Under the pieces are notes generated by a model. It was not told the DNA's origin. It was given only the letters and a program-made list of their open reading frames with translations, and searched no databases. From Candidatus Micrarchaeum acidiphilum ARMAN-2 (GTDB lineage Archaea > Micrarchaeota > Micrarchaeia > Micrarchaeales > Micrarchaeaceae), in assembly GCA_009387755.1 (NCBI GenBank), contig GG697240.1:1-64000 (forward strand): 64,000 nt of DNA. Reading direction: 5' to 3'. Below, piece by piece: positions 5,933-64,000 of this stretch; within the stretch, counting starts at the first letter, position 1; each line of letters starts with the position of its first letter. Both the position numbers and the translations under genes were made by a program.

Positions 5933-5988
5933 GCTGTAATCAATCTTACTTTTTACGATCCGGACGCAGCGGCATCTTCCGTGCACGG

Positions 5989-7423: not shown

Positions 7424-7448
7424 CCAGTCTGCGCTGGCATACTGCAGA

Positions 7449-9870: not shown

Positions 9871-9880
9871 TGGAACACCA

Positions 9881-10829: not shown

Positions 10830-11312
10830 ATGACCAAACAAAAAACCAATTCGGATGGCATAACAAGAAGGATCTTCACGAAGGAAGTCGTAAAGTTGCG
10901 GGAGAGTTATAACGGCAAGGTAAGCGAGGAAGAGATGAAGAGCATAGGTGCAATACTGGAAACGGTAGATGCGACGTTTATTGGAACAAGCCGCTACAGC
11001 AAACCAGAAAATGGCTATGATCTCATAGCAAGCAGCATATACGCGGCGGCAGTTCAGGCAAAAATGAATGGCCATGACAACCTCTGGAAGGATTTGGCAT
11101 CCGTAGAGAATTCTGACTCGCTAATAAACAAGTTCAGCAGGTTTGTTAAATCAGATGCCGCCATTGTGGAGCAGAGAAAGAAGAAGTTTGATAAATTACA
11201 GTATCTCAGGGAAGTTGAAAACACACCGGGAGGGCTCGCAAGCATTCTTTCAAGCGAAAAAGGCAGGGCGGATCTGCTCAAGCAGCTCAGGAGGATAGAG
11301 AAGGAATCCTAA
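10830..11312 (+). CDS. Hypothetical protein
   Basis: 160-aa ORF immediately downstream of an AT-rich divergent promoter. No recognisable domain. Confidence 0.4.
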   Translation: MTKQKTNSDGITRRIFTKEVVKLRESYNGKVSEEEMKSIGAILETVDATFIGTSRYSKPENGYDLIASSIYAAAVQAKMNGHDNLWKDLASVENSDSLINKFSRFVKSDAAIVEQRKKKFDKLQYLREVENTPGGLASILSSEKGRADLLKQLRRIEKES

Positions 11313-11384
11313 ATCTAGGTAATTGCGAGATTTCATGCTCGCAATGCCAAGCCGTTGTGTATTGGAGAATGCGCAGGCGTGAAC

Positions 11385-12330: not shown

Positions 12331-14070
12331 TTGATAATCAAATCAGTGCGTTCTATGGAAGATATATATCATAGTGTATTGGAAATCTCCGGAGATAAAC
12401 TTAAGATAGAGGACATTGTCCGCGTAGGCAATTCTATCCCTGGAACAGTTATGGTGAGACTGTCCAAAAATGCAGAAGACTCCATGCGCAAATCTAGGAA
12501 GTTTGTGGATGAAGCTGTTGAAAACAAATTAACAATATATGGCATTAACACTGGTTTCGGTTCACAGGCTGAGAATGTGATATCGAGCGAAGATGTTGCT
12601 CTCCTGCAGCGCTACCTGATAGTAAGCCATTCTGCAGGGGTAGGAGACCCTTTCAGTCAGGAACTGATAAGAGCTTCAATGCTGATAAGGGCAAATACGC
12701 TGGCAAAGGGCAACTCAGGAATCAGGATAGAAGTAGTGCAAACGCTCATAGATATGATAAACAAAGGCGTGGCCCCGTTTGTGCCTAGGAAGGGATCGCT
12801 AGGCGCCAGTGGAGATCTGGCCCCGTTATCGCATATTGCGCTAGTAATGACACGCGACCCGAGGGATACACACATAAAGATTGAGGATGAGCTAGCCAAG
12901 AAAGCAGCTTCTGGGATGCATTTCGATGATGACGAACGCAGAAAATCTCTAAAGGAGTCTGGAGAGGCATATCTTTGGTCGTCTGAAAGAAGCTCATGGG
13001 AGCGGATGACCGGAATTGAAGCAATGGCAAAGGCCGGAATCAAAAGGATAACCTTGAGCGCAAAGGAAGGTCTTGCATTGAACAATGGAAGCACGGTTTC
13101 GGCCGCTATGGCGGCATACGCCATCCATTACGGAGAAAACTTGCAGCGCAGCGCAGACATAATAGCCGCGCTAACCACGGAATCTGTTAAGGGTTTCGAG
13201 TCCGCATTCTATGAAGAGCTTCATGCGACACGTCCGCACCCGGGGCAGGCTGAATCTGCCAAAAGGATACGCAATTACTTGAAATCTAGTGGAATGGTTA
13301 CGCACATAGAGCAGATACAAAACTCGCGAAATGTATATCAGGACTTTAAAAAGGTTCAGGACTCGTATTCTATAAGGTGTATTCCCCAGGTTCATGGCCC
13401 GGTGATAGACACGCTGAGGTCCTCGAGAGAAATGATTGATAAGGAGATCAATTCTGCAACCGATAATCCATTGATAATGCCGGACAACAGCTACTTTAAC
13501 AAGAGTTTCAGCGGAGGCAATTTCCACGGCCAGTACATAAGCCTCTACATGGATAATCTCGGCACAGCACTCGGCATACTCGGCAACATAGCCGAGAGAA
13601 GGATTTTCAAGCTCGTGACAAGGAATCTGAGCGAAGGGCTGCCAGGGTTTCTGATATCTCCAGCACCGGATAAGGCCGGGCTCATGAATGGTGCGATGAT
13701 ACTTCAGTATACTGCAGCACACCTGGTATCGGAGAACAAGGTATTCTCGCATCCAGCGTCAGCTGATAGCATACCCTCGTGCGAAGACAAAGAAGATTTC
13801 GTAAGCATGGCGCCCATAGCAGCCAGCAAGGCACTGGCGATACTGGAAAACTCTGAGAATATACTTGCAATAGAGCTTTGGTGCGATATAGTCGCCCTCA
13901 GGATCAGGATGAAAGAGGGCCTTACACCAAGCGATAACGCCAAAAAGGTCCTTGGTCTCTTCAAGGACAAGGTTGCGGAGTTTGAGGAGGACAGAGTAGT
14001 CTATGACGAGGTGAGGGAGCTGAAGGCGTTCATACACGATGGCGGGCTGCAGTCCATGACCCGGCAGTAA
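12331..14070 (+). CDS. hutH: Aromatic amino acid ammonia-lyase (HAL/PAL family; MIO-forming)
   Basis: 'GSLGASGDLAPLSHIAL' contains the Ala-Ser-Gly triad that forms the MIO cofactor. Full-length collinear similarity to histidine ammonia-lyase. Confidence 0.8.
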   Translation: MIIKSVRSMEDIYHSVLEISGDKLKIEDIVRVGNSIPGTVMVRLSKNAEDSMRKSRKFVDEAVENKLTIYGINTGFGSQAENVISSEDVALLQRYLIVSHSAGVGDPFSQELIRASMLIRANTLAKGNSGIRIEVVQTLIDMINKGVAPFVPRKGSLGASGDLAPLSHIALVMTRDPRDTHIKIEDELAKKAASGMHFDDDERRKSLKESGEAYLWSSERSSWERMTGIEAMAKAGIKRITLSAKEGLALNNGSTVSAAMAAYAIHYGENLQRSADIIAALTTESVKGFESAFYEELHATRPHPGQAESAKRIRNYLKSSGMVTHIEQIQNSRNVYQDFKKVQDSYSIRCIPQVHGPVIDTLRSSREMIDKEINSATDNPLIMPDNSYFNKSFSGGNFHGQYISLYMDNLGTALGILGNIAERRIFKLVTRNLSEGLPGFLISPAPDKAGLMNGAMILQYTAAHLVSENKVFSHPASADSIPSCEDKEDFVSMAPIAASKALAILENSENILAIELWCDIVALRIRMKEGLTPSDNAKKVLGLFKDKVAEFEEDRVVYDEVRELKAFIHDGGLQSMTRQ

Positions 14071-40537: not shown

Positions 40538-42673
40538 TTACCTGCCCTTTTGCCTGCGGGCAAGCGCATAAGCGAATATTACCGCCACCACTATTATTAT
40601 TAATGCAGCAATTATGCCGCTGTCGTTGCTGGAGGGTTTTGGCACGGCTGGTACGGTTGTCGCGGGTGTAGTGGTAGGCGCAATAGTGGTGGTTGGAACT
40701 GTGGTGTTTGCGTATAGTGCGACTATCGGGTCTGATGAAACGCTGAATGATATAGTGCATGTTACCGGGTTTACAGTGTAAGGCACTATTGGTTGCAGCG
40801 AACCGTTCACGAGTTCGTATGGCGCAGTTGGGTATCCTGATGCGCAGTCATAGGTAGTGGTTATGTTTGCGGTTATGCTGCCTGCAGAGGTAAAGTTTAG
40901 TATGAATGCCTTAACCATTGTGTGGTTGGCGAAGAACGGCAATGTGCCAGTGTAGTTTGCAATTGTGAAATTGACGTTAGTCGAATTTGGAGAAGGAGTT
41001 GCAAATGAAACGAACATGCCCAGGTTGCCGAAGCTAATGTTAAAGGGCTTTCCGGCCGATGTACCGAAAGATCCAGTATATGAAGCTGTTGAACTGGATA
41101 TGTTTAGAGTGTGTTGCGGCACGGTTGTCGTTGCAGTAGAGGTTGTAGTTGAATTGACAATGTACAGCACGGTTGTCGTTGCAATCGAGGTAGATGTGCT
41201 GGTTGCATGGCCTGAACCCGGCGCTTGCACTTCGTATGCGTAGGTTATGGAGTCTGCGGAATAGTTGGCGTTGCCTGTTTCATTGAAAGTGTAGGTATAG
41301 AGCCCTATTGAGTTTGAACCAGTGTAAGTTATAGTGTTGGACGTGCTGCCTACAAGCGTTCCGTTTAGATAGAGTTTGGCGGTTATCTGGCTGTTGTATG
41401 TTTCTATCGAAGCAATCGTATTGCATGACAGACCATCGACAGTATAGGTGCTGCAGGACTGGGGGAACGACATTTTCGGCGCTGCCTTGTATATAGAATA
41501 ATTTCCAATCGAGAATCCTTCTGCATATACAACGTTGCCTGTGTTGTAGAACTCAAAGGAGTAGTTGCCAGCAACTGCGGGTGCGTTGTAGGCAATCGAC
41601 CCAAAACCGGCTGTGGAAGAGTCAACCTTTGAATATGGGCCACCGTTCACTGACATGTATAGGTTGCCTATTGCGTTTGACGGAGATATTGAAGCGGTTA
41701 CGGTTGCATTAGAGCCATTGTATACGAAGCTGCGTGGCACAGAAATTGAAGTATGCGCAGCCGCAGCAGATATCACAAAATTTTCTATTATGTTTGCTGG
41801 GGTGTAGTTTGCATTTCCAGGCGTTTCGAATTCAAGTGTGTAGTTGCCCACGTTTATTGCGTTGATCGGCGCGGTCTGTACATGGCCCGGCGCATTTGCC
41901 GAATAGGTTGCGATAGTATTGCCATTTAGCATCAGTGTGCCGCCTAGTGGCTGCAATGTATTGGATATTGAGAATGTTGCAGTTGCGTTTATGGAATTGC
42001 CAGTGTATACGTAGCTAGAAGCTATTCCAGACAAGTGGATGTCTGGCGTTGCCTTTGATATAGTGTATATGTCGTTTGAAACGCCTATGCCGGTGTAGTT
42101 CGAATTTGGTATCTGGAAGTCAAGCGCATATGTGCCTGCAGCTGCAGGGAGAGAATATTCGGTTTCAGGGCTTAGTTTTATTGCGACAATCGTATAGTTA
42201 TTTGCTTCGTTTTCATATCCAGAAGGTCCTATAAGGTAAACCGTCCCATTTTTTCCCGTAAAGGCATAGTAAGGATCTTCGTAGAATGGTACTGTTTGAA
42301 TGCCGCCGACTTGGGCGTTTGTAGTGGTATTCAGAACTACTACGCCGTACGCATATGATCCAGAATACCCGCTAGAAGATGGATCGTAGCTAAAAAGATA
42401 GACATTGCCTCCGGACACGGCAGATATATACGGATAGTATACCGGAACGTTTTTTACAGTAGATCTTGTATGGGTGTTGTACACTTCAACATACTCTCCA
42501 TAATATATAGGTATATACAAGTATTCACCATTGGATGATATTGATATTTGGCCGGTATCCTCCTCGGATGTTGGTATTCTGTATTGCAAGGTGTTTGTAG
42601 TTGTATTTATTACTGTAAAATCATAGTAGTATCCTGAAACATAGAGGTGCCTGCCGCTGGGCGAAAGCACCAT
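40538..42673 (-). CDS. Giant surface glycoprotein, C-terminal segment: Ig-like repeats, Thr/Pro linker and a C-terminal TM anchor
   Basis: Begins with a YVTN-type repeat that is in frame with upstream sequence beyond the annotated ATG. Repeats such as 'MSVNGGPYSKVDSS..AYNAPAVAGNYSF' match those in the upstream ORF. C-terminal 'IIAALIIIVVAVIFAYALARRQKGR'. Confidence 0.6.
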   Translation of the reverse strand: MVLSPSGRHLYVSGYYYDFTVINTTTNTLQYRIPTSEEDTGQISISSNGEYLYIPIYYGEYVEVYNTHTRSTVKNVPVYYPYISAVSGGNVYLFSYDPSSSGYSGSYAYGVVVLNTTTNAQVGGIQTVPFYEDPYYAFTGKNGTVYLIGPSGYENEANNYTIVAIKLSPETEYSLPAAAGTYALDFQIPNSNYTGIGVSNDIYTISKATPDIHLSGIASSYVYTGNSINATATFSISNTLQPLGGTLMLNGNTIATYSANAPGHVQTAPINAINVGNYTLEFETPGNANYTPANIIENFVISAAAAHTSISVPRSFVYNGSNATVTASISPSNAIGNLYMSVNGGPYSKVDSSTAGFGSIAYNAPAVAGNYSFEFYNTGNVVYAEGFSIGNYSIYKAAPKMSFPQSCSTYTVDGLSCNTIASIETYNSQITAKLYLNGTLVGSTSNTITYTGSNSIGLYTYTFNETGNANYSADSITYAYEVQAPGSGHATSTSTSIATTTVLYIVNSTTTSTATTTVPQHTLNISSSTASYTGSFGTSAGKPFNISFGNLGMFVSFATPSPNSTNVNFTIANYTGTLPFFANHTMVKAFILNFTSAGSITANITTTYDCASGYPTAPYELVNGSLQPIVPYTVNPVTCTISFSVSSDPIVALYANTTVPTTTIAPTTTPATTVPAVPKPSSNDSGIIAALIIIVVAVIFAYALARRQKGR

Positions 42674-50397: not shown

Positions 50398-51468
50398 ATG
50401 CTAGGGCATAAAATAGCGTTGAATATGGAAGCCAGAGCGCCAGGAGTGATTAAGCTGTTCGGCGAGCATGCTGTGGTATACGACAGGCTTGCAGTTGCCA
50501 TGGCTATAGACAAATACGCCTACGCCAACGTTGGAAAGGCTGCTGGAGAATTTTCGGTCGGCCTGCTTGATTTCGGCAGGTCAGGAAATTTCTCAGAGAA
50601 GGAGCTCGAATCTATTTACATTTCTTATTTTGCAAAGGACTCCATCCCCGACCAGAAAGGCAAGACGGAGCACATACTTAAATTCATAGGCGAGAACAGC
50701 GCAGTAGACGCAGATCTGCTGCCTTTTGCCGTCATAGCGTCAAGGATACACAAACAGTATGGCGCAGGGCTTAACGGCATCAAGGCCGAAATAAGGTCAG
50801 AAATACCCACGCAAAAAGGATTTGCAAGCAGCGCGTCATGCTATACCGCATTTACATTGGCAATGCTGAACTATCTTGGAATATCGTTGGGTCACGATGA
50901 GATAATCGAGATAGCCAAGGATGGCGAAAGGGTGCGGCACAAAAACGAAGGCGCAGGAAAGATAGACGTCAGCACTTCATATTATGGGGGCTTCGTAAGC
51001 TACAGAGGCTCATCTGGCGCAAAAAAGGAAAACGATATAAATACAAATATAGTTCTGCATGCAATAGACACCGGACCCAAGAAGAGCACTGCTGAGATGG
51101 TTGGGCGCGTGAGGGAGATTTATGAAAGCAACCGAGAATACGCGAACTACCTGCTAGATAGGATAGAGGCCTGCAGCACAAGGGGCATAGCCGCGCTGAA
51201 AAGTGATGATGCTGAGAGCCTTGGAAAGATTATGGATGAAAACCACTCCTATCTGAGGATGCTTGGAGTTTCCAGCGAATCGCTTGAAGACGCTATTGCC
51301 CTGACCAAAGCTGCAGGTGGCCTTGGCGCGAAGCTGTCAGGTGGAGGAGGCGGAGGAATCGCCATTGCAATTACAAAAGACCACGACGCTCTTGAAAAGG
51401 AGTTGGCATTGCATGGCTACGTAAACTACTCTGTTGGTGTTTCGAAGAGCGGCGCGTCGGTTAATTAG
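50398..51468 (+). CDS. mvk: Mevalonate kinase (GHMP kinase)
   Basis: 'APGVIKLFGEHAVVYD' (MVK N-terminal motif) and GHMP motif 'PTQKGFASSAS'. The track ORF is extended 5' across the promoter, so the start is taken at MLGHK. Confidence 0.8.
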   Translation: MLGHKIALNMEARAPGVIKLFGEHAVVYDRLAVAMAIDKYAYANVGKAAGEFSVGLLDFGRSGNFSEKELESIYISYFAKDSIPDQKGKTEHILKFIGENSAVDADLLPFAVIASRIHKQYGAGLNGIKAEIRSEIPTQKGFASSASCYTAFTLAMLNYLGISLGHDEIIEIAKDGERVRHKNEGAGKIDVSTSYYGGFVSYRGSSGAKKENDINTNIVLHAIDTGPKKSTAEMVGRVREIYESNREYANYLLDRIEACSTRGIAALKSDDAESLGKIMDENHSYLRMLGVSSESLEDAIALTKAAGGLGAKLSGGGGGGIAIAITKDHDALEKELALHGYVNYSVGVSKSGASVN

Positions 51469-51479
51469 ATGGTGAAATT

Positions 51480-52541
51480 ATGGAAGATAGAATTTACACT
51501 GCGATTGGATCCTCGAACATAGCCTTCATAAAGTACTGGGGCAAGAGGGATGGCAAGATAAACCTTCCAAATAACTCCAGCATAAGCATGACCCTTGACA
51601 GGAATGTTGGCACCAAGACTAGCGTGCTTTTTTCCAGCAAGCTGAAAAGCGATAGACTGTTCATAAACGGGAAGGAGGAGAACATCAAAGAGGGTGCAAA
51701 CGAGAAATCTAGGTTTATAAGCGAGATGCTTGCCTATTGCAAAAAGGCGGCAGGAATAAACACGAATGCACTGATAGTGTCAGAAAATAATTTTCCATCA
51801 GACAGCGGCCTGGCTTCAAGCGCATCCGGCGGTGCGACTCTTGCATTCCTGCTGTCTAACGCCCTTGATCTGAAGATGGACTCCAGAGAGATATCAATAA
51901 TGGCAAGAAAGATAAGTGGAAGCGCGTGCAGAAGCGTTTACGGGGGCATAGTGAAATGGGATGCGGGAAGCAAGCAAGATGGCAGCGACTCCTTTGCAGA
52001 GCAGGTAGTTGATCATCGATACTGGCCTGATTTGATGGACATAATCGCAATAGTTGATCCTTCTAAGAAAAAAGTTTCTAGCAGTGCAGGGCATGCTATT
52101 ACTGTAAAGACTAGTTCACTATACAGGGTTAGACCGCAGGTGGCGGAGGAAGGCGTAAAAAAAGTTGTTAATGCAGTCACGAACAAAGATTTCCAGGTCC
52201 TTGCCGAAACTGTGATGCGCGACAGCAACAACATGCACGCCACGATGATGGACAGCTGGCCGCCAATAATGTACCTGAGCGATGCATCACGCAGCATAAT
52301 ATACGCAATGCACGAGCTCAACGAAAGCGAGGGCAAGTATGTCGCAGCGTACACGTTTGACGCAGGGCCGAATGCACATATAATAACTACCTCGAGCAAC
52401 AGAAGCAAGGTGATTAAGATGCTTGAAGAAATCGGAGTTGCAAGAAGCATAATAGAATCTAAGATGGGTGCAGGGCCGGAGATGCTGGAAGGAGAAGAGT
52501 CGCTTATCGACCAAGAATCTATGGCTCCTGTGCATAAATAA
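51480..52541 (+). CDS. Mevalonate-phosphate/diphosphate decarboxylase family protein (MDD/PMD-like GHMP)
   Basis: 'NIAFIKYWGKRD' (MDD N-terminal signature), 'SDSGLASSAS'. Lies between mvk and the IPK gene. Confidence 0.75.
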   Translation: MEDRIYTAIGSSNIAFIKYWGKRDGKINLPNNSSISMTLDRNVGTKTSVLFSSKLKSDRLFINGKEENIKEGANEKSRFISEMLAYCKKAAGINTNALIVSENNFPSDSGLASSASGGATLAFLLSNALDLKMDSREISIMARKISGSACRSVYGGIVKWDAGSKQDGSDSFAEQVVDHRYWPDLMDIIAIVDPSKKKVSSSAGHAITVKTSSLYRVRPQVAEEGVKKVVNAVTNKDFQVLAETVMRDSNNMHATMMDSWPPIMYLSDASRSIIYAMHELNESEGKYVAAYTFDAGPNAHIITTSSNRSKVIKMLEEIGVARSIIESKMGAGPEMLEGEESLIDQESMAPVHK

Positions 52542-52582
52542 TAAATATTAAATAAACCTATTAACTTAGACGCAGTGAAGAA

Positions 52583-53392
52583 ATGGCAAAGAAGCTCTAC
52601 ATGATAAAGCTTGGAGGAGGCGTAGTATCTGATATAGCGACTGCCAGGAAACCACTTGTTGACGAAATCAGTAGGGTTATCAACGAGGTAAAGGCTGCAA
52701 AGGATGAAGGGGGTTTCGACCTTATAATAGGCCACGGCTCGGGGTCTTTTGGCCACATACCAGCACACACCTACAGGGTAAACGAAGGGCTTGTCGGACC
52801 TGAGAGCAGGAAAGGAGCCGCAATAACCCAGCAGGTGGCGCAGGAGCTCAACAGGATAATAATTAGTGAGGCGATAAACGCAGGGCTAGATCCATTCCCG
52901 TTCTCGCCTTCCTCATTCATGATAGCGGATGGCGGCGTGCCCTCTGAAGGCAGCGCAGCGCACATCAGGCATGCAATAGACAGGGGCTTTGTTCCTATAG
53001 TTTACGGCGATGTGGTCATGGACAGGAAGATGGGCGTTAGCATAGCCTCTACAGAAAAGGTATTCAGCTTCCTGGCGAGGCAGATTGGCGTAGACAGGTT
53101 TGTGCTTGCAACCGACGTTGACGGCGTGTTCGACAAGGATCCGAGGACTAATCCTGATGCAAAGCTTGTAAGGCTCATAGACGGATCAAATATAGACAGC
53201 ATATTGGAGCACGCAGAAACCAACAAGATGAAAATAGACGTTACAGGGGGCATGAAAACAAAGGTCTTGGGCATGCATGAGATGGTATCTTTAAGCGGCA
53301 CCGAGGGCATAATAATAAACGGCAAGGTTCCAGGCAGGATACGCGACGCGCTTCTTGGAAAGGATGTGCCAGGGACCATAGTCAGGCCATAA
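52583..53392 (+). CDS. ipk: Isopentenyl phosphate kinase (amino-acid-kinase fold)
   Basis: 'MIKLGGGVVSD', 'GHGSGSFGH' (IPK His motif), 'VVMDRKMGVSIASTEKVF'. Confidence 0.8.
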   Translation: MAKKLYMIKLGGGVVSDIATARKPLVDEISRVINEVKAAKDEGGFDLIIGHGSGSFGHIPAHTYRVNEGLVGPESRKGAAITQQVAQELNRIIISEAINAGLDPFPFSPSSFMIADGGVPSEGSAAHIRHAIDRGFVPIVYGDVVMDRKMGVSIASTEKVFSFLARQIGVDRFVLATDVDGVFDKDPRTNPDAKLVRLIDGSNIDSILEHAETNKMKIDVTGGMKTKVLGMHEMVSLSGTEGIIINGKVPGRIRDALLGKDVPGTIVRP

Positions 53393-53771
53393 CGGGAATT
53401 GCTGGCCTTAGAATAGTAATTTGAAGACTTTTTTGCCTACCGCAGTCAAAATGGAAAGAAATAAAAAGGTATATTGAGAATTGGATAATGCGGTGGCAGA
53501 GATGAGTGGACAATCTGGTGGCTAAAGCGATTAGAGGATAAGATAAACACATCGTTTGACTTTGTTGGACTCCCATGATACGAATATAGTGCTATTGGGT
53601 AGAATCAACTGGTTTATATTAATGCCGAAATCTGTAACTGTTGTTTTATTCAAGTTGTGATGAAGATGATACGGTTCGATGTTGCTTTGTTTAAGTATCT
53701 GTAAAATGACACGCCACCAGTGCCCTGGGCACAACCCTTAAAAGCAAGCCTTGCATCAGCTGCTAGCTCTT

Positions 53772-54443
53772 TCAACTCTTTTTTAGGCTTTTCAGTATCT
53801 TGATTATATCTTTGAAGCTTCCCGCGGCGTAGTCGGCACTTTGATGGCCTTTGTATGATATCGTTGTCATGCCCATCAGTTTTGCGCCGTCAAGCTCATC
53901 CTTGTCATGGCCGACGAAAACTGCGTTTTCGGGCCGGGCCTTGAAGTGCGCAAGCGCAACTTCATATGCTTCGCGGTCCGGCTTCCTGTGACCCGTGTCC
54001 ATTGGCACAAATATCTCGTCGAATATGCTTCCGAGGCCTGCGTATGCGAGCATGTCCTCTTTCTCCTTCTTCGAATTTATGGAATCGGTTAGCACTGCCA
54101 GGTATATGCCCAAGCGCTTTATCTTCGTCAGGGACTGCCTTAGGTCCTGCTCCGTTGCCCTATACAGCTTGGTCGAAGACTTGTGCAGCGCTACGAATTC
54201 TGATTGAAGATTTGGTGGTGCGCCGAGCAGCTTCGTGAACCTGCCCATTGTTATGTAGAGCTCATCCTCCCCGGGAGTTGTGCCTCGCATAGCCTTGATC
54301 CATGCGCTGTCCAGCATTTTTGCAGTGGCCGCTATTCCGGCAGCCTTGAGCAGCTTTATTGCCTCTTTGTTGAAGTATTCGTTGGATTCACTGCCGTCCA
54401 GCAGCACCCCGTTAGAGTCAAATATTGCAACGTATATTGACAT
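53772..54443 (-). CDS. HAD-superfamily hydrolase, subfamily IA
   Basis: Motif I 'VAIFDSNGVL', motif IV 'FVGHDKDELDGA'. Confidence 0.65.
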   Translation of the reverse strand: MSIYVAIFDSNGVLLDGSESNEYFNKEAIKLLKAAGIAATAKMLDSAWIKAMRGTTPGEDELYITMGRFTKLLGAPPNLQSEFVALHKSSTKLYRATEQDLRQSLTKIKRLGIYLAVLTDSINSKKEKEDMLAYAGLGSIFDEIFVPMDTGHRKPDREAYEVALAHFKARPENAVFVGHDKDELDGAKLMGMTTISYKGHQSADYAAGSFKDIIKILKSLKKS

Positions 54444-54577
54444 GTGATTACCGTCCTTGCTGCTATACGTATGTCCAGCTATAAAACCTTTACTGCATGA
54501 TAGAAATATGCGGCATTGTCAAAAGTGTTAGGTAAAATCTAAATATTTCAAAAAGCGGATATATTAATCGGATATTC

Positions 54578-54901
54578 ATGCAAACGACTGAAAATACTTA
54601 TGGGCATGCAGCACAGGCGCGAAATGAAAAACTGTCAAGTGGCATCAGGAGGGCGCTTGGCAAAGCGGCGCTTCTGGCCGGCAGCGCGCTTGAGGGGGTT
54701 TCGGCATACCTTATGATACGCCTTGATCCGCATGAGATTGCTGCTTACAATTCAAATGTTACGCTCCCTGCGCAGTATATGCTAGGACATCCATTGCAAA
54801 ATGATATTGCCATTGGCGCGACGATTGCGGGCGTACCCGGCATAATCGCACTTGCTGCCGGGCTAAAAATGCTTTTAAGGAAGGATGATGAAGAACAATG
54901 A
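54578..54901 (+). CDS. Small hypothetical protein with a predicted C-terminal TM helix
   Basis: 107-aa ORF. No recognisable domain. Confidence 0.3.
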   Translation: MQTTENTYGHAAQARNEKLSSGIRRALGKAALLAGSALEGVSAYLMIRLDPHEIAAYNSNVTLPAQYMLGHPLQNDIAIGATIAGVPGIIALAAGLKMLLRKDDEEQ

Positions 54902-54915
54902 GGTTATGGAAGTAA

Positions 54916-55665
54916 ATGACCAATACATATAATTCCAGAAAAGCAGGTGCATCAAGCCTAGCATGGACCGCCGAAGAAGAAAAGTCGTTCGCGCGGTGCA
55001 GCTCCAAATCTAAAAAACTGCGGGTTGAAATCGTAGGCATGGCAGACCTGCTTAGGAGCGAGGACAGGCCTGAATGCTTTCAATATCCGTACACCAACGA
55101 AACCTACAGCATCTTAACCCTGGACAAGCTAAGGCGGGTGGTTAGGGGCAAAAAAAGGCTTTTGTTTGTGGTTGGAGGAGGAGGGATATTGAAACTTCTG
55201 CCTGCGCTGGCTGAAGGCAATGATTTCGAAAGCATTACTGGAATTGATATAAACCTTGGACAGCTGCTCAATTTCAAGCATCTCTGCAAAAAGATAAACG
55301 AAGGCAAGGATGTATTCATAAGAAGGAATACCAGTTATGGAAACACTGTGTCGCTAAAGCAAACTGTGATAGCAGGCTCGGAGTGGCTCGGAAATGTTGG
55401 GCTTCATAGATATGAGTTCTTCTTAGTTCCTGGGATAAAGCTTGAAAGGAACATACCAGGGATAAACCTTATTCATGACAGCATTGAAAGATATCTTCAA
55501 AGGGTGCCTGATAAGCACGCTCCCGATGTCCTATACCTATCTAACGTGCTTGAATGGAACAGCGATCTGTACTCTGTAATACATAAAAGCAGGAAGATAC
55601 CTAAGAACGCAGTAATAATGGCGTATAAAACAGCGCGCGATGGACTAGGTTTTTACAGAAAGTAG
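54916..55665 (+). CDS. Hypothetical protein
   Basis: 249-aa ORF. 'LLFVVGGGGILKLL' is a possible nucleotide-binding Gly-rich loop. No confident family. Confidence 0.35.
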   Translation: MTNTYNSRKAGASSLAWTAEEEKSFARCSSKSKKLRVEIVGMADLLRSEDRPECFQYPYTNETYSILTLDKLRRVVRGKKRLLFVVGGGGILKLLPALAEGNDFESITGIDINLGQLLNFKHLCKKINEGKDVFIRRNTSYGNTVSLKQTVIAGSEWLGNVGLHRYEFFLVPGIKLERNIPGINLIHDSIERYLQRVPDKHAPDVLYLSNVLEWNSDLYSVIHKSRKIPKNAVIMAYKTARDGLGFYRK

Positions 55666-55669
55666 CGCG

Positions 55670-56836
55670 CTACTTTATCAGTTTCTTGTAGGCGAAGCCG
55701 CTGGCTGCCTGCAATACACCGCCTATAATTAGTGGCGCCGGAAGTGCTATGTCCATTAGATAGCCGCTGGTGCCAGCTGTCATCTGCGATGCCCTGGTAG
55801 CTATACCCTGAACGCTTGTTGCAGTTCCATAATCCTCAACGTCCACGCCGCGCACCATGACAGTTGACCTCGCGGGGGAGCCGAAGGATGCCACTACACC
55901 CCTTAACACGAAAAATGCAGATGCAAGCACAGGTATAGGCGACAGTGCCATTGCAATAAGCAGCAGCCCGTTTGAAAGCCTTGTTGCAAGCACAACATTA
56001 ATCAGGTTATACTTGAAAGATATCGCCCTTGCAAGGTACGACCCCAGTATGCCCATTGCGTAGTAGACTATGTAGACCGTGCCTATGTATGAAGTGCCTA
56101 TGCCAAACGATAACTCGAACCATAGCGGCAGTATCGGTATTGACATGCCTATGCCTGCGCCACTAAGGCTGTTTGCAGCGATTATGCGCAGTATGTATTT
56201 CATGCTCGTGCGCTTCATCACCTTAGTAGTCTTTGCAGGGCGCTTGATCTCCGAGAGTAGGAACAGCGAGAGCAGGGAAAGAAGAAGAAGCACAGCTGAA
56301 ATTTCGAACACCACCCTAAATGCGGAAATGTTTCCGTATATAGTTGCAAAGTAAGAATGGAGCGAGACCAGCAGGGCGCCGATTACACTGCCAAACCCCC
56401 CGAGCAGCATTAGCAGGGACATGCGCCTTACTCTTTCCTTTTCGTCGCGCCAGTTGTTTGCCAGGAAGGGCATCAGCCCGTTTGAGAAGGTGCCCCTGGC
56501 GGTGCCTCCTCCGCCGCTGAGTCCGCCCAGTATGATAGCCGCTATTATTAGGTAGATAGACGTGGAAACGGACAGCAGCAATATCCCGGCAAACGATATT
56601 CCCTCGGATATTATCAATGATTTTTTATATCCATATCTGTCCCCTATGGCGCCCCCAATAAGCACAACAACCATGCTGAACAGTACTGTTGCAAATATTA
56701 CTATTCCTATGGATATTAGGTCAAGATGCAGCGCGTACAGATACAGCGGAAAAGATACGTTTACGGCTATCAGCCCTATGCTCCTAAATATCCTGGATGC
56801 TCCCAGTGCTGCGTATCCGTAGCTGCGCTGTTCCAT
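55670..56836 (-). CDS. MFS transporter
   Basis: About 12 TM helices in two 6-TM halves. 'GAIGDRYGYKK' resembles the MFS loop 2-3 motif (G-x-L-aD-R-x-G-r-[KR]). Confidence 0.7.
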   Translation of the reverse strand: MEQRSYGYAALGASRIFRSIGLIAVNVSFPLYLYALHLDLISIGIVIFATVLFSMVVVLIGGAIGDRYGYKKSLIISEGISFAGILLLSVSTSIYLIIAAIILGGLSGGGGTARGTFSNGLMPFLANNWRDEKERVRRMSLLMLLGGFGSVIGALLVSLHSYFATIYGNISAFRVVFEISAVLLLLSLLSLFLLSEIKRPAKTTKVMKRTSMKYILRIIAANSLSGAGIGMSIPILPLWFELSFGIGTSYIGTVYIVYYAMGILGSYLARAISFKYNLINVVLATRLSNGLLLIAMALSPIPVLASAFFVLRGVVASFGSPARSTVMVRGVDVEDYGTATSVQGIATRASQMTAGTSGYLMDIALPAPLIIGGVLQAASGFAYKKLIK

Positions 56837-56883
56837 GCTATTGATTTGCCAGCAAACTAATTTATCATTTTATGCTCAGAGGG

Positions 56884-57621
56884 CTAATCCTGCGCAGCTC
56901 CAGAACCAATGTGCCTCATCATGTAGGCGAGAAAAATAAGGGCGATTATAGTTGATGGTATCCAAACAATAAGTTCTCCTGCAGCATATGAAAAGCCTAA
57001 CAGCGCCGTAGCTATGGTTATATAGATTAGCATGCCATCTATGTATGAGTGGGCCAGGAAAGTAACCAAAAAATTTCTGGGCGCCTTCTTCCTTGCAATG
57101 CCGCCTTTCAAAAAGACCGCTGTGCTAGTGTGGAATATCATTGAAAATGGCGCTTGCAGGACTATGCCTATCAGCAAAAATGCGCCGGTTGCAGCAGCAG
57201 TGCCAGACGTAGAAAGGCCAGGGAGTAGCCCGAAGACAAAAATTGCGATGTCGACAACCGCAAAACCAAAGCCAATCCAGGACGCATCCTGCACCGTGCG
57301 GTACTTTACTGCAAAAAGCTTCGCGCCTTCCTGCCAAAGCCCAGCCATTATTCCCAAGAAAGCGGCTATTGCAAGGGGGTATTCCTTTTGAAGGGCAACG
57401 TATTTCAGGCTTGCGGCGGACAAGCTCTTTGAAGACTCAAGTATGAGTATGAATGGGATCTCCTGGAAAATCGACTGCGCCACAAGCGCTATGGCCATTG
57501 CACCTATGCCTATCATGACTGCAAGCACTGCGCCTGATCTTGATTTTTTGAGTAGAAGCCCGGCTGCAAGCAGCATTACTGCAACGGAGATTGTTATGCC
57601 GAGCAAAGATGCGAGCACCAT
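56884..57621 (-). CDS. Polytopic membrane protein, possibly CPBP/Abi-family intramembrane protease-like
   Basis: Seven or eight TM helices. 'WQEGAKLF', 'FH' and 'HSYID' loosely resemble the CPBP motifs EExxxR/FxxxH/HxxxD. Assignment is weak. Confidence 0.3.
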   Translation of the reverse strand: MVLASLLGITISVAVMLLAAGLLLKKSRSGAVLAVMIGIGAMAIALVAQSIFQEIPFILILESSKSLSAASLKYVALQKEYPLAIAAFLGIMAGLWQEGAKLFAVKYRTVQDASWIGFGFAVVDIAIFVFGLLPGLSTSGTAAATGAFLLIGIVLQAPFSMIFHTSTAVFLKGGIARKKAPRNFLVTFLAHSYIDGMLIYITIATALLGFSYAAGELIVWIPSTIIALIFLAYMMRHIGSGAAQD

Positions 57622-57721
57622 TATAATACCCTTAAAATAGCCAAACCTAAAATTTTTATACAGCCCTGTGCACTAGAAAAAATATAAATATCATGGCAGG
57701 TGCAGTATATATAGTGTTTGC

Positions 57722-60244
57722 ATGGATGCTGACGTGAAGGATATCTTTGACCTGGCATACGAGAACGCGCTTGCGCGCCGCGCACATGTCGATAGCAACT
57801 ACATTGATGCACTCAATCATGGCATTGAAGTTGCCCTTGGCAAGAAGGACGCCGCAGACTTAAGCGTAGAAGCAGGAAAGCTTGATTCCGTACTGCTTGC
57901 CTTGGAAAGCATAAATAGCATATGCGAAGCAAAGGCGTACAGCGAAAGCTTGGAATTCTTTCCGGTCAGGCACAGCATTTCTAGAGACACAAAGAGGAAG
58001 AGTATGGTAACCATAAGGCTAAGGGCGGGAGAGGCTAAATTCAAGACTCCGGATAGCGCCAAACCGGCAAATTCAAGCGCCACTACAATTGAGCGTAATG
58101 TGCATGAAACTGTAGCACAGGTTACAGCACGGCCAAAAAAGGAAACACCCGGCGCTATGGGATTTGCCGAAGTGGTAAACAGCAGCTATGAAAAAATTGC
58201 AGAGCATTACAAGAGGCTGAGCAAGGAAGAGTACGGCATAGAATTCAAAGTACCTGAAGTCAGAATGTTTTCAGATGACAAAGCAGAGCCCGACAACGAA
58301 TCGAAATTTAAAGCGGGCGTCTTGGGCTACTACAAAGACTCTGAAAACACCATTCATCTAACTAGGGCGCTATATGAAAAATATTTATTAAATGATACCT
58401 CGATCCGCAATGAGGATATTTATTTGACATTGGAGCATGAACTCGGACATGCATTTGCTACGCAGATGGGCTATGACAAAACTTATGGGCTACGCGGCGA
58501 ATACTATGGCAGCAGCCGCCTAAGATACAGGGGGATAAGAGATATTGTTGCCTCAGAATTTTTGGCAAACCTTTTCGGGGCAAGGATTGATATCGAGATT
58601 AAAGGCGCATCTCCCACAAATAAAGCTCTGGCCGATGAGCTCCTCAATCAGGCGACACTTGACTACTTATACAAGGATACAGATGCAGCAAAGATTTATT
58701 TTGATACGCTTTTGAAAAAATCCAAGGAGCTCATGGATAAGCACGCCGAAATTAAGACTGAATTCAAGAAAAAGAAGCGCGACTACACTGACAATGGTGG
58801 TGAGATAGACTTGGGATACTTTAAAACTTACCTTCTTGAAGCCACTGCAGAGGCCATAACGTACTTGAAATTCATAGAAGACGGGCTTTCTGCGCTGGAG
58901 ATTTATGGCGGACCTGTGCTAGGGGCTGTAAAGGCTCTTGAGGAGGGAATGAGTTTCGACAGGCTGGTCAGCAAGGCGTCGAAAAATATAAAATCCTTGA
59001 AATATGTAAAAGAATACTTTCCTGGCGCGGCCGCGGTAGAATACTCAAGCCTGTATTCGTCTTTTGATCTCTTTGAAAGCCTGGGCCCGTATATGACGGA
59101 CGTGCTTGGCCTGAGCACAGATCAAAACAAAAATTTGAATCCAGAAAAGCGCATGCGCGATGAACTTGAAAAATGTGAGGATGCAATAGGAGGGATGGAG
59201 GGGTACTTTAAAAGGATGGAGCGCGTGGGCAGGGACATGTACGAAAACGAAAAGAAGGTCCTTGGCGAAATGGAAAGGCTTAAGAAAGAATTGAATGGCG
59301 CCCTACCTGGGCCGGGCGGGAACAAAGTCCAAGCGGCCAATGCGGATATGCAGATGTACAACATGCTGGATAACAGCGCAATCGAGCTTCATGACATTGC
59401 CAGGCGCCTCGAATCCGAGTTTAATGGAGCAAGTGCCAAAGAAAAACTGCAAGACAAAGCATTCTTATATTCATTATTGGATGACCTCGGGAAAATGGTG
59501 TTGCGCGATCTGAATGGAATGATGAGGCTTGCGGCTGGAGACGCGTGGATTGACTTGAAGCCAAGCGATTTCAAAGTGGGGGAGGATATAGACGTCCCTG
59601 TATCTTTAGGAATTCTAGGAATTTACAAATCGAAGAGTTTCAGAGTAGATCCGTTTGAAGGTATCAAGAACCTCATTGAACCCATGGAAAGATATGAAGG
59701 AAACATTAGCGAACGCACTGCATACGATTTAGTAAGGCACCTATATCAGTTAGTAGTCCATGAGGGCTTTCATGCAGTACAGAATGAAAGATTAAATTCG
59801 GAAAAACAGGTAAATAGGGTCCTGCACGGCAAGGATACGGATATTTTCATAGAAGGCGGAGCCCATTTTGTGGAAAGGTATGTGAAGGCGCTCATAGAAG
59901 CTAGGGAGCGGGACAGGATTAGAAGCGCGGATGATATAAAACATATGTTCCTAGATGAATTTAATTTGTCGTCAGTTGCAAAATTGCTCGATGAAAAGCC
60001 CAGAAGTATAGCAGGTAAGCTGCATAAATATAGCGCGTATGACGTCGGCATGTTTATGTTTACGGTCAGGTACGTTGCGAACGGCAGCTTCATAAGCACG
60101 CTAAATGAAATCCGTAAAATGGCAGACGAAGATGGTACAGGCGGTATAAGCAACAGGAAACTTTACCAGATGTTGGACAGGGACATTGAAAATGGCAACG
60201 TTGCCAAGCTGAAAAGAGAGATTCAAGCGTACCGAATAAAGTAA
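57722..60244 (+). CDS. Large (840 aa) soluble protein with two HExxH zincin-like motifs; uncharacterised family
   Basis: 'LTLEHELGHAF' and 'LVVHEGFHAVQ'. Coiled-coil stretches. The N-terminal ~115 aa are homologous to the partial ORF at 63645-64000. Confidence 0.5.
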   Translation: MDADVKDIFDLAYENALARRAHVDSNYIDALNHGIEVALGKKDAADLSVEAGKLDSVLLALESINSICEAKAYSESLEFFPVRHSISRDTKRKSMVTIRLRAGEAKFKTPDSAKPANSSATTIERNVHETVAQVTARPKKETPGAMGFAEVVNSSYEKIAEHYKRLSKEEYGIEFKVPEVRMFSDDKAEPDNESKFKAGVLGYYKDSENTIHLTRALYEKYLLNDTSIRNEDIYLTLEHELGHAFATQMGYDKTYGLRGEYYGSSRLRYRGIRDIVASEFLANLFGARIDIEIKGASPTNKALADELLNQATLDYLYKDTDAAKIYFDTLLKKSKELMDKHAEIKTEFKKKKRDYTDNGGEIDLGYFKTYLLEATAEAITYLKFIEDGLSALEIYGGPVLGAVKALEEGMSFDRLVSKASKNIKSLKYVKEYFPGAAAVEYSSLYSSFDLFESLGPYMTDVLGLSTDQNKNLNPEKRMRDELEKCEDAIGGMEGYFKRMERVGRDMYENEKKVLGEMERLKKELNGALPGPGGNKVQAANADMQMYNMLDNSAIELHDIARRLESEFNGASAKEKLQDKAFLYSLLDDLGKMVLRDLNGMMRLAAGDAWIDLKPSDFKVGEDIDVPVSLGILGIYKSKSFRVDPFEGIKNLIEPMERYEGNISERTAYDLVRHLYQLVVHEGFHAVQNERLNSEKQVNRVLHGKDTDIFIEGGAHFVERYVKALIEARERDRIRSADDIKHMFLDEFNLSSVAKLLDEKPRSIAGKLHKYSAYDVGMFMFTVRYVANGSFISTLNEIRKMADEDGTGGISNRKLYQMLDRDIENGNVAKLKREIQAYRIK

Positions 60245-60385
60245 GGTCATTCCCGCGGAGGATGAAGGCGAACTGCAGGCAAGTATAATGCCTCCTTATG
60301 CCGTTTGAGACTATGACTTAATACCCTGTTTAGTTTGGTATGCTCCCCATTGAATTTGCCTAATTGGAAGTTAGATCTTACATTT

Positions 60386-61876
60386 TCATCTGCAAAATTT
60401 ATCCTTCTGAATTCCGTAGTGTCCTAGCACAAGGTACGACCTTACTGAAGTATAAATATATAAAGCTGCTTATCCACAACACTATTGGTGTTTGTTTCAA
60501 AAAATGACATAAATAGCGGACTGTGGTATAATGAGTTTTGTGGATTTTTTTGTTGAATCTTACAGGAAGGCATTCGGAATAATGCTTCATCCTGGGAAAA
60601 ACGCAAGAGGTGCACTTAGCGTTGGCGATGCACTGAAATTCTATTACACTATAGCGATAATACCTTTGATACTTGGAGTTGCCTTGTCCCTGCTGACAAA
60701 TGCAAGCTTCCTCAGCGTATTTGGAGGGTTTTCCGGAAGCAGTGCGTTGGGACCTGGCGCAGCCGCACCTGGTGGCGGACTGTATTTTGCATTATACCTT
60801 ATAGCGTTTTTCGCAGTCCTTGTGCCACTTGGCCTGTTATTTGACACCGCGATGTACCACGTAATAATAAAGTCGCTTTTAAAGATGTACAACAAGCCAT
60901 ACTCGACGGCATTTACTGCGTTCACCTACGCCATGATACCGGCGGTGCTTGTTTATTGGCTACTTCCATTAGGCATACTTGGGTATCTGGTAATACTGCT
61001 GTTTGGCTTGTGGAGCTTAGTAATAGAAATAATCTCACTTTCGAACCTGCTTTCTATAAGCAGGCTTATGGCGTTAGGTAGCCTCATACTTGACGAGCTT
61101 ATAGTTGCGGTAATATTATTCGGGGCGCTGTTCCTGGCAATTCTTGGTTCGGCGGGGCCGATGCTGCTAAATTCCTCCGTAATAAGCAGCAACCATTCCG
61201 TGCCTACAACCATACCCAACTATATTAACACAACCAGCATTGCAGTTCCGGCCACAACAATCCCAAGCACTAACACTAGCCAGAGCGGACCTTATTCCAG
61301 CATAGTAGGCACACAACCTGCTAGCACATCGTCTGCGAACTACTCTTCGTGTGCAAATTTTACAATATCAAATCCTAATGAATATAACCAGACAAGCCAC
61401 GCCAGCACTTTAGTATACGCCACATGCAAATGGGGTGGGGGCATGCTCTACGTTTATACGGCTGGAGGAAACTCCGGTTATGCGCATCTGAACATAAACG
61501 GAAGCAACGGCAAGACATATTTTGCCAATTCGACGAACTCGAGGTGCTATGCATATGCAGGTTCCTTCTATGCCCCGGCGCAGGATTACAAGCTTTGGAT
61601 AAGTGCGGGAGGAGGAGGCGGAATTTGCGGCAATGCAGCTGCACTGATCGTATCGGCCAACCATGTAAATACTTCGGCTGCAGCGCCCGGATCAAGCATA
61701 AAGCTTCCGTTCGGCAGCATGCTATTCTCCTCGAGCAGCACGCCGTCCAATGTCAGCTCCGCGGCCAACAGGATTCTTGGCAGCACGCAGCTTGATTTTT
61801 ATTCGAATGACAGTGCAAGAGTACTGCTTCAGAACGGAACAGAGATCTGGCTGGGCACCATCCCGTTAAACGAATC
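60386..61876. repeat. Tandem duplication unit, copy 1 (1,491 bp; promoter plus a Yip1-like gene lacking its last ~51 codons)
   Basis: Sequence from 60386 matches 61877 onward base for base as far as compared, apart from a 21-nt indel. Junction lies at ...AACGAATC|TCATCTGCAAAATTT. Confidence 0.85.
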
Positions 61877-61901
61877 TCATCTGCAAAATTTATCCTTCTG
61901 A
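60531..61901 (+). CDS. Yip1-like multi-TM membrane protein with a Ser/Thr/Asn-rich extracytoplasmic C-terminal domain; C-terminally truncated copy
   Basis: Five TM helices after 'MSFVDFFVESYRKAF'. The last 7 codons (HLQNLSF*) are read from duplicated promoter sequence across the duplication junction. Confidence 0.55.
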   Translation: MSFVDFFVESYRKAFGIMLHPGKNARGALSVGDALKFYYTIAIIPLILGVALSLLTNASFLSVFGGFSGSSALGPGAAAPGGGLYFALYLIAFFAVLVPLGLLFDTAMYHVIIKSLLKMYNKPYSTAFTAFTYAMIPAVLVYWLLPLGILGYLVILLFGLWSLVIEIISLSNLLSISRLMALGSLILDELIVAVILFGALFLAILGSAGPMLLNSSVISSNHSVPTTIPNYINTTSIAVPATTIPSTNTSQSGPYSSIVGTQPASTSSANYSSCANFTISNPNEYNQTSHASTLVYATCKWGGGMLYVYTAGGNSGYAHLNINGSNGKTYFANSTNSRCYAYAGSFYAPAQDYKLWISAGGGGGICGNAAALIVSANHVNTSAAAPGSSIKLPFGSMLFSSSSTPSNVSSAANRILGSTQLDFYSNDSARVLLQNGTEIWLGTIPLNESHLQNLSF

Positions 61902-63388
61902 ATTCCGTAGTGTCCTAGCACAAGGTACGACCTTACTGAAGTATAAATATATAAAGCTGCTTATCCACAACACTATTGGTGTTTGTTTCAAAAAATGACA
62001 TAAATAGCGGACTGTGGTATAATGAGTTTTGTGGATTTTTTTGTTGAATCTTACAGGAAGGCATTCGGAATAATGCTTCATCCTGGGAAAAACGCAAGAG
62101 GTGCACTTAGCGTTGGCGATGCACTGAAATTCTATTACACTATAGCGATAATACCTTTGATACTTGGAGTTGCCTTGTCCCTGCTGACAAATGCAAGCTT
62201 CCTCAGCGTATTTGGAGGGTTTTCCGGAAGCAGTGCGTTGGGACCTGGCGCAGCCGCACCTGGTGGCGGACTGTATTTTGCATTATACCTTATAGCGTTT
62301 TTCGCAGTCCTTGTGCCACTTGGCCTGTTATTTGACACCGCGATGTACCACGTAATAATAAAGTCGCTTTTAAAGATGTACAACAAGCCATACTCGACGG
62401 CATTTACTGCGTTCACCTACGCCATGATACCGGCGGTGCTTGTTTATTGGCTACTTCCATTAGGCATACTTGGGTATCTGGTAATACTGCTGTTTGGCTT
62501 GTGGAGCTTAGTAATAGAAATAATCTCACTTTCGAACCTGCTTTCTATAAGCAGGCTTATGGCGTTAGGTAGCCTCATACTTGACGAGCTTATAGTTGCG
62601 GTAATATTTTACATAATAATTGCTGTGATATTCGGGGCGCTGTTCCTGGCAATTCTTGGTTCGGCGGGGCCGATGCTGCTAAATTCCTCCGTAATAAGCA
62701 GCAACCATTCCGTGCCTACAACCATACCCAACTATATTAACACAACCAGCATTGCAGTTCCGGCCACAACAATCCCAAGCACTAACACTAGCCAGAGCGG
62801 ACCTTATTCCAGCATAGTAGGCACACAACCTGCTAGCACATCGTCTGCGAACTACTCTTCGTGTGCAAATTTTACAATATCAAATCCTAATGAATATAAC
62901 CAGACAAGCCACGCCAGCACTTTAGTATACGCCACATGCAAATGGGGTGGGGGCATGCTCTACGTTTATACGGCTGGAGGAAACTCCGGTTATGCGCATC
63001 TGAACATAAACGGAAGCAACGGCAAGACATATTTTGCCAATTCGACGAACTCGAGGTGCTATGCATATGCAGGTTCCTTCTATGCCCCGGCGCAGGATTA
63101 CAAGCTTTGGATAAGTGCGGGAGGAGGAGGCGGAATTTGCGGCAATGCAGCTGCACTGATCGTATCGGCCAACCATGTAAATACTTCGGCTGCAGCGCCC
63201 GGATCAAGCATAAAGCTTCCGTTCGGCAGCATGCTATTCTCCTCGAGCAGCACGCCGTCCAATGTCAGCTCCGCGGCCAACAGGATTCTTGGCAGCACGC
63301 AGCTTGATTTTTATTCGAATGACAGTGCAAGAGTACTGCTTCAGAACGGAACAGAGATCTGGCTGGGCACCATCCCGTTAAACGAATC
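61877..63388. repeat. Tandem duplication unit, copy 2 (1,512 bp; contains a 21-nt insertion relative to copy 1)
   Basis: Extra 'tttacataataattgctgtga' gives FYIIIAV in the protein. Otherwise identical to copy 1. Confidence 0.85.
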
Positions 63389-63566
63389 TGTCAGCCAGAT
63401 GAGCCTGTACTACAAGTCCTGGCCCGGCGGCTACGTTTCGGAGGGCATCAGATTCGAGAACATTGACTTGCTGATATCAGGCAGCGCCACTTCTGCAGTA
63501 GTTACGGCAACATATCCTGCAGATTCGAACTACACATTCGTAGTGGATTATGGAGGCGTGGGCTGA
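62022..63566 (+). CDS. Yip1-like multi-TM membrane protein with a glycosylated extracytoplasmic C-terminal domain; full-length copy
   Basis: 514 aa. Same N-terminus as copy 1 and an intact C-terminus (...YTFVVDYGGVG). Many NxS/T sequons, plus 'ISAGGGGGICGN'. Confidence 0.6.
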   Translation: MSFVDFFVESYRKAFGIMLHPGKNARGALSVGDALKFYYTIAIIPLILGVALSLLTNASFLSVFGGFSGSSALGPGAAAPGGGLYFALYLIAFFAVLVPLGLLFDTAMYHVIIKSLLKMYNKPYSTAFTAFTYAMIPAVLVYWLLPLGILGYLVILLFGLWSLVIEIISLSNLLSISRLMALGSLILDELIVAVIFYIIIAVIFGALFLAILGSAGPMLLNSSVISSNHSVPTTIPNYINTTSIAVPATTIPSTNTSQSGPYSSIVGTQPASTSSANYSSCANFTISNPNEYNQTSHASTLVYATCKWGGGMLYVYTAGGNSGYAHLNINGSNGKTYFANSTNSRCYAYAGSFYAPAQDYKLWISAGGGGGICGNAAALIVSANHVNTSAAAPGSSIKLPFGSMLFSSSSTPSNVSSAANRILGSTQLDFYSNDSARVLLQNGTEIWLGTIPLNESVSQMSLYYKSWPGGYVSEGIRFENIDLLISGSATSAVVTATYPADSNYTFVVDYGGVG

Positions 63567-63644
63567 TTTTAGAGGTAATGCGTTAAAATCAGCAGACACT
63601 GCACTGGTTTTAAATATTATTTAAGCCGATATAATAATGAGTCT

Positions 63645-64000
63645 ATGGCGGACGAAAAGCTGCTAGAGGTTGTGGACAGGGTGCAGACCGAGGCATTGGG
63701 CTTTAGCATTGCCGAGGGAGCAGGGGATCCAGACAGACTCAACAACATAATTGACGCTATCTTTTCTGGCAGAGAAGAAATTGAAGTTGGCATTGGAGAG
63801 AAGCGGCTTAAGCCCTTCCTGGAAACACTTGAAGCAATAAATCTTGTATGTTCTGCAAAGGCGAACTATTCTGGATGGGAGTTTGAACCTATAAAGCACA
63901 GTACTGTAGAAAGCGACGTTGCAGGAGACAACGTCACCGTAAAGCTAAAAAGGGGCGCGATAAAATTCAGGCAGCCAGAGGAAAAACCGCTAGTGCAAAA
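63645..64000 (+). CDS. Paralog of the 840-aa double-HExxH protein; N-terminal part only (truncated by the window end)
   Basis: 'LETLEAINLVCSAKANYSGWEFEPIKHS...VTVKLKRGAIKFRQPEEKP' aligns with 'LLALESINSICEAKAYSESLEFFPVRHS...VTIRLRAGEAKFKTPDSAKP' from 57722-60244. Confidence 0.55.
   Translation, partial: MADEKLLEVVDRVQTEALGFSIAEGAGDPDRLNNIIDAIFSGREEIEVGIGEKRLKPFLETLEAINLVCSAKANYSGWEFEPIKHSTVESDVAGDNVTVKLKRGAIKFRQPEEKPLVQ

Follow-up and report, generated by a model that had tools for sequence, protein, structure and literature searches.

A tandem duplication in the ARMAN-2 reference genome that is single copy in other assemblies of the same population

In the reference genome of Candidatus Micrarchaeum acidiphilum ARMAN-2, the 64,000-nt stretch examined here (the window) contains two head-to-tail copies of a 1.5-kb segment that includes most of a gene for a Yip1-like membrane protein together with its upstream region. 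The copies differ only by one 21-nt insertion/deletion (indel), and the other verified assemblies of this population carry one copy, equal to the second of the two. A single copy is the normal state of the population in those assemblies, and the duplication, an ordinary phenomenon under every reading, is not a stable feature of the genome. The reading favoured here, which we hold to have an even chance of being correct, is that the duplication was a genuine minority or transient haplotype that arose in one microhomology-mediated event and was preserved by a composite, low-coverage assembly.

The duplication and its single-copy counterpart

A repeat search and a walk along exact matches agreed that the two copies are 100% identical apart from the indel, confirming the near-perfect tandem duplication described in the first-pass annotation. 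In the walk, positions 60386 to 61117 equalled 61877 to 62608 at an offset of 1491, and positions 61117 to 61877 equalled 62629 to 63389 at an offset of 1512, leaving 21 nt of copy 2 (TTTACATAATAATTGCTGTGA) without a counterpart in copy 1. The duplication is far beyond chance, as no other repeat of at least 60 nt was found within the window. The window contains no N characters, and the joint between the two copies is free of them. By eye, the repeat start (TCATCTG) was seen to have a 7-nt inverted match in CAGATGA just past the repeat end, which is compatible with chance.

Two new joints distinguish the arrangement from a single copy, namely the deletion in copy 1 and the junction between the copies, each with 1 nt of microhomology. 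On one molecule they are separated by 760 nt, the deletion coming first, then the junction and then the intact copy. The indel is near the midpoint of the repeat and divides it into arms of 732 and 760 nt, each about the length of one Sanger read. An imperfect direct repeat had been reported to flank the indel and is indeed present (9/11 matches), but an origin by slippage between its two halves was rejected, because their spacing of 24 nt leaves the 21-nt deletion out of register and the in-register product would differ from the one observed.

Table 1. Coordinates of the duplicated segments, their joints and the genes that they carry
Feature	Position in window	Strand	Remarks
Copy 1 (1,491 nt)	60386..61876	+	145 nt of upstream region and the first 449 native codons; carries the 21-nt deletion
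Copy 2 (1,512 nt)	61877..63388	+	Equals the single copy of other assemblies
Duplication junction, AACGAATC joined to TCATCTGC	61876..61877	+	1-nt (T) microhomology; exact also in UBABS_C4387 at about position 1200
21-nt in-frame deletion site in copy 1	61117..61118	+	AVIFYIIIAVIF becomes AVILF; 1-nt microhomology
21 nt present only in copy 2 (ancestral state)	62609..62629	+	Corresponding 7 residues kept in 6/6 homologues
Imperfect direct repeat, GCGGTAATATT ... GCTGTGATATT	62598..62632	+	9/11 matches, 24-nt spacing; encodes AVIF...AVIF
Copy 1 open reading frame, 456 aa (EET89949 / UNLARM2_0393)	60531..61901	+	Last hydrophobic helix shortened, C-terminus truncated, 7 foreign end residues
Copy 2 open reading frame, 514 aa (EET89950), intact	62022..63566	+	N-terminal Yip1-like membrane domain, Ser/Thr/Asn-rich linker, beta-rich C-terminal region
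AT-rich TATA-like element TATAAATATATAAAG, candidate archaeal promoter element	60451..60465 (second copy 61942..61956)	+	By inspection; 66 to 80 nt upstream of the ATG, inside the repeat

Four contigs from different samples (L001 to L004, from European Nucleotide Archive ERZ27237514, Joint Genome Institute (JGI) 3300038729, JGI 3300030228 and NCBI GCA_026127865.1) were aligned to the window, and each matched it with 0 mismatches over 11.3 kb. All four carry a single 1.5-kb unit that includes the 21 nt, is equal to copy 2 and directly follows a gene for an 840-aa protein, and their positions 9856 to 11368 map onto both copies in the window. The duplication with its deletion was the only structural difference in these comparisons, and contigs of 94 to 152 kb from different assemblers pass unbroken through the locus. 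A further 20.8 kb of the window showed 0 to 2 mismatches against four more contigs. Assemblies of at least six other samples or sources (L001 to L008; window 11202 to 32005 and 50531 to 64000) are identical, or nearly so, to the 2005 reference; judged by these sequences, ARMAN-2 is one near-clonal population across the datasets.

The exact 514-aa protein encoded by copy 2 was read on 23 contigs (the index lists 30 blocks of the collection), and the 456-aa product of copy 1 was absent from the record on contigs with a position for the gene. Presence in other assemblies of the same population, as would mark a stable feature, was thus not found. The protein tail that derives from the junction was present in two of the five members of the protein cluster, the NCBI ARMAN-2 entry and a fragment designated P0009, both of which come from the Sanger dataset. 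A scan of JGI metagenome contigs for 33-mers and 37-mers of the junction and the deletion gave no match, in a collection that also missed an older dataset (2010484004) holding the junction. GTDB representative genomes, scanned for the junction and for the deletion allele, likewise gave none; these negatives carry little weight. A literature search on the accessions of the other samples found nothing relevant on their origin.

All six homologues examined (~40 to 76% identity) keep the seven residues missing from copy 1, and the three close homologues keep its missing C-terminal 58 residues. As the single copies in the other assemblies also equal copy 2, sequence comparison identifies copy 2 as the normal, ancestral gene and copy 1 as derived, with two lesions. 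Among relatives with genome context, the closest (L014; 70% identity) is single copy. A distant Micrarchaeota metagenome-assembled genome (L016; DAHXMI010000004.1) carries two adjacent diverged Yip1-like paralogues (5959 to 6975 and 7080 to 7739) that share ~70% nucleotide identity over 370 nt, one of 338 aa with an extracellular tail and the other of 219 aa with the membrane domain only. This pair goes back to an old tandem duplication within this gene family.

The genes and the encoded protein

The product of copy 1 is letter-for-letter the database protein EET89949 / UNLARM2_0393 (P0001) and that of copy 2 is EET89950. Open reading frame analysis and comparison with homologues bore out the earlier description, in which copy 1 is truncated while copy 2 is intact. 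The copy 1 frame is native through ...PLNES, continues with seven residues (HLQNLSF) read from the duplicated upstream region and then stops, so that 58 native residues are lost; a full-length gene with the deletion would be 51 codons longer. By our own count, the deletion also cuts the last hydrophobic stretch from ~27 to ~20 residues, a length at which a membrane helix would still be possible. Copy 1 is presumed to be without function. As the repeat takes in 145 nt 5' of the ATG, including the TATA-like element, copy 2 probably retains its own promoter.

The name 'Yip1-like' given in the first-pass annotation could be upheld only in part. A Pfam search with the full-length protein gave no match, and the N-terminal 223 aa scored 13.3 bits against PF04893 (Yip1), below the cut-off of 28.6. 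However, this sub-threshold match spans profile positions 1 to 165 of 173, a homologue with ~41 to 43% identity (P0005) passes the cut-off at 31.8 bits, and two others (P0006 and P0007) come near it at 23.8 and 24.4 bits. UniRef names the products of both copies 'Yip1 domain-containing protein'. The protein resembles Yip1 domain membrane proteins in its N-terminal domain of ~220 residues with about five hydrophobic helices and in the weak match along nearly the full profile, and homologues with ~40% identity reach or approach the Pfam threshold. It differs from them in falling below the cut-off itself and in carrying a sequon-rich, beta-rich extension of ~290 residues.

Hydropathy segments in the N-terminal region lie between residues 34 and 225, and helices were predicted at residues 31 to 55, 82 to 120, 124 to 147, 149 to 173 and 179 to 214 in a low-confidence model. 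This AlphaFold2 model, built from an 8-sequence alignment, has a mean predicted local distance difference test score (pLDDT) of 42 and a predicted template modelling score (pTM) of 0.28, and was unusable for a fold search. No family matches the C-terminal 289 residues, in which there are 14 N-x-S/T sequons as well as predicted beta strands; the description of the product as a glycoprotein was drawn solely from these sequons. The protein is probably anchored in the membrane, with its sequon-rich part outside.

Source and origin of the duplicated arrangement

Both genes are located on a 335,072-nt contig of the whole-genome shotgun project ACVJ01. The ARMAN-2 genome is a composite built from Sanger end reads of clones with ~3-kb inserts (Dick et al. 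2009, PMC2745766), prepared from two Richmond Mine biofilms, UBA (June 2005) and UBA BS (November 2005), and was assembled and curated with phred/phrap/consed at a mean coverage of 15x (PMC2745766). According to the authors, each ARMAN-2 fragment probably comes from a different cell (PMC2745766).

The central indel had at first suggested a simple mis-join of overlapping contig ends that were left unmerged, but this hypothesis was downgraded when the junction was found within another contig. Fragment P0009 led to contig UBABS_C4387 (2,295 nt) of JGI dataset 2010484004, an automated assembly of the UBA BS sample that belongs to the same 2005 dataset as the reference. Its 1,924 unmasked bases (positions 347 to 2270) correspond to window positions 61025 to 62947, a range that takes in the junction with the deletion allele before it and the insertion allele of copy 2 after it. 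The contigs UBABS_C4388 (window 59047 to 60683) and UBABS_C1364 (63152 onward) tile the flanks in tandem order. As the junction is exact and lies in the clean, error-free interior of UBABS_C4387, it is present in assembled sequence beyond the final reference and is not a bare concatenation of contig ends; the Ns that often mark one were not seen. A single copy elsewhere would speak against the duplication, and at the level of assemblies the four flank-identical contigs are indeed single copy. Even so, the presence of the junction in an automated contig of the same sample argues against a mere mis-join.

The deletion is less cleanly recorded in UBABS_C4387. The local UBABS contigs are short (2.3 to 5.6 kb) and meet at masked ends of 327 to 410 nt, and all 7 differences between UBABS_C4387 and the window cluster around the deletion, no more than 160 nt from its left end. 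Masked ends and errors are probably the 3' tails of single reads, in which case the deletion in UBABS_C4387 rests on one poor read stretch. The curated reference is clean at the positions of these 7 errors, suggesting that a better-quality read with the deletion existed in the combined assembly. Elsewhere in the window, UBABS fragment contigs were seemingly fewer than at the duplication locus.

The first-pass annotation had framed the duplication as either an assembly artefact or a very recent amplification, and that framing suits the data. Under the favoured reading of a genuine haplotype, a single replication error would have arisen in part of the ARMAN-2 cells present in the Richmond Mine biofilms (UBA / UBA BS) at the 2005 sampling. 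Two joints of 1-nt microhomology, 760 nt apart and in the observed order, are what one event with two template switches would yield, the first skipping 21 nt and the second jumping back 1,491 nt. The outcome would be a head-to-tail duplication of the upstream region and most of the Yip1-like gene, in which copy 2 would stay the unchanged functional gene with 145 nt of its own upstream sequence, and copy 1 would be a by-product from which 7 residues of its last hydrophobic helix and the C-terminal 58 residues are missing. Homologous recombination over 1.49 kb of perfect identity should readily undo such an arrangement, and thin Sanger coverage would then have fixed the duplicated haplotype into the published reference. 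The in vivo origin, the single-event mechanism and the instability are inferences; the locus does have the two head-to-tail copies and the novel junction expected of an in vivo duplication.

This anatomy is shared with spontaneous microhomology-mediated tandem duplications, such as those attributed to fork stalling and template switching (FoSTeS) or microhomology-mediated break-induced replication (MMBIR) and the unstable duplications of bacteria, which have the same head-to-tail copies and the same kind of novel joint, here sharing 1 nt. Further points of likeness are another small rearrangement nearby (the 21-nt deletion) with a like joint signature, zero divergence between the copies, and absence from otherwise identical genomes, which an unstable, unselected duplication would be expected to show. 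The ARMAN-2 case differs from the FoSTeS/MMBIR-type events in that its mechanism is deduced from joint anatomy alone. We know of no data on microhomology-mediated duplication events in Micrarchaeota. A likeness can equally be drawn to false segmental duplications, in which allelic overlaps were not merged. These have the same single polymorphism in mid-repeat with arms of about one read length, and the same low-coverage, composite and manually curated Sanger source; the copies here likewise differ only at a polymorphism that could block merging and that lies within one read length of the ends. In ARMAN-2, however, the joint is without Ns and lies inside a clean automated contig.

Several observations weigh against a genuine haplotype and lend substance to a clone- or assembly-level artefact, which is a real possibility, though a clearly less probable one. 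Here the genome would be single copy, and one rearranged or chimeric plasmid clone would have supplied both the junction and the 21-nt deletion. That clone may have been selected because the intact membrane-protein gene could harm E. coli, and thin local coverage would have let phrap/consed curation lead the reference along it. Records with the junction and the deletion all derive from one Sanger dataset, as a clone-level artefact would also give, and the independent clones that cross either of them could number one. The four verified contigs of other samples are single copy, and all 23 contigs read have the intact 514-aa gene. In UBABS_C4387 the deletion lies where errors are frequent (7 in 160 nt), close to a long masked contig end, and the short UBABS contigs with masked ends suggest a local coverage of ~1x against the ARMAN-2 mean of 15x, which fits under-representation in a clone library. 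Finally, the indel is almost in mid-repeat, each arm being about as long as one read, as is typical where an assembly has trouble with a polymorphism, and the chance of so central an indel is ~2% by our own estimate. However, the junction lies in the error-free interior of a contig whose 1,924 unmasked bases would by our reckoning need at least three reads, and on a rough estimate the co-ligation, in direct orientation, of two fragments of one 1.5-kb locus is very improbable for an organism at an abundance of a few percent. The duplication would also give no relief from toxicity, as copy 2 is intact, and the clean curated consensus at the deletion implies a good-quality deletion read besides the stretch in UBABS_C4387.

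That the ARMAN-2 strain carries a fixed, stable duplication whose copies were collapsed by all short-read assemblies is unlikely. A perfect repeat of 1.5 kb exceeds short-read and insert lengths, such that collapse could occur in principle, and the Sanger data with their 3-kb mate pairs are the only data able to resolve the repeat. However, a junction edge at full depth normally breaks contigs at the repeat borders, whereas the contigs of 94 to 152 kb run through. All of the long contigs carry the 21-nt allele, the junction tail is confined to the two Sanger-derived cluster members, and the failure to find junction and deletion k-mers in the scanned JGI contigs points the same way, as a weak negative given that the scan missed the junction-holding dataset. 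The earlier suggestion of possibly reversible variation found no support. Programmed or recurrent reversible variation, in copy number or phase, of a surface-exposed protein in a host-dependent archaeon has hardly any probability, and there is only a very slender chance that the duplication is one state of a recurrent expansion and contraction that varies the dosage or form (full-length against tail-less and helix-shortened) of a sequon-rich surface protein between biofilm populations. In its favour, the protein is probably a membrane-anchored one with sequons in its external part, recombination can lengthen or shorten perfect tandem repeats, and in the distant relative two paralogues stand side by side, of which one has no external tail. 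Against this, no other sample shows a recurrence, the junction tail being known from two records of one dataset, and the closest relative, at 70% identity, is single copy. The breakpoints have only 1-nt microhomology, with no flanking or specialised repeats that would make the event repeatable; no inverted repeats of at least 30 nt were found in the 58 to 64 kb region, and the neighbouring gene calls include no recombinase Pfam family.

Surroundings and significance

The duplication is flanked by large uncharacterised genes encoding the 840-aa protein (57722 to 60244, + strand) and a 521-aa protein (63645 to the window end, + strand; complete in L001, 11624 to 13189), and the gene calls of L001 to L004 give the 840-aa, Yip1-like and 521-aa trio in the same order. 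Both flanking proteins have weak, sub-cut-off signals of zincin-like metallopeptidases (Aspzincin_M35; MPTase-PolyVal, Peptidase_M78 and SprT-like), and the 840-aa protein includes two HExxH motifs, HELGH and HEGFH. The downstream 521-aa gene was considered as an older paralogue of the Yip1-like gene, and was rejected as the two share no similarity.

At the other end of the window, positions 1 to 2000 have a G+C content of 34%, compared with ~47% for the rest. The products encoded there belong to glycosyltransferase families 1 and 2, and the segment may be a block of glycosylation genes acquired laterally. The exact sequences of the long open reading frames that a mechanical list delimits at 40538 to 42673 (- strand), 8827 to 9927 (- strand) and 12331 to 14070 (+ strand) are not on record, which is likely explained by other choices of start codon in the deposited annotations. 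ARAGORN found no tRNA genes in the 64 kb, where intron-disrupted ones may have been missed; ARMAN-2 tRNAs have been reported to be heavily disrupted by introns (PMC3239211).

Next to the intact gene, the public ARMAN-2 reference (ACVJ01; UniRef C7DH47 and C7DH48) holds a truncated extra copy that the other verified assemblies lack. A 456-aa protein that is spurious or non-representative is therefore carried over into gene counts, paralogue analyses and proteomic databases built on this reference, and EET89949 ought not to count as a genuine gene of ARMAN-2. If the duplication was truly present in 2005, it would be a small, concrete case of an unstable microhomology-mediated rearrangement in a natural DPANN population, and biologically unsurprising.

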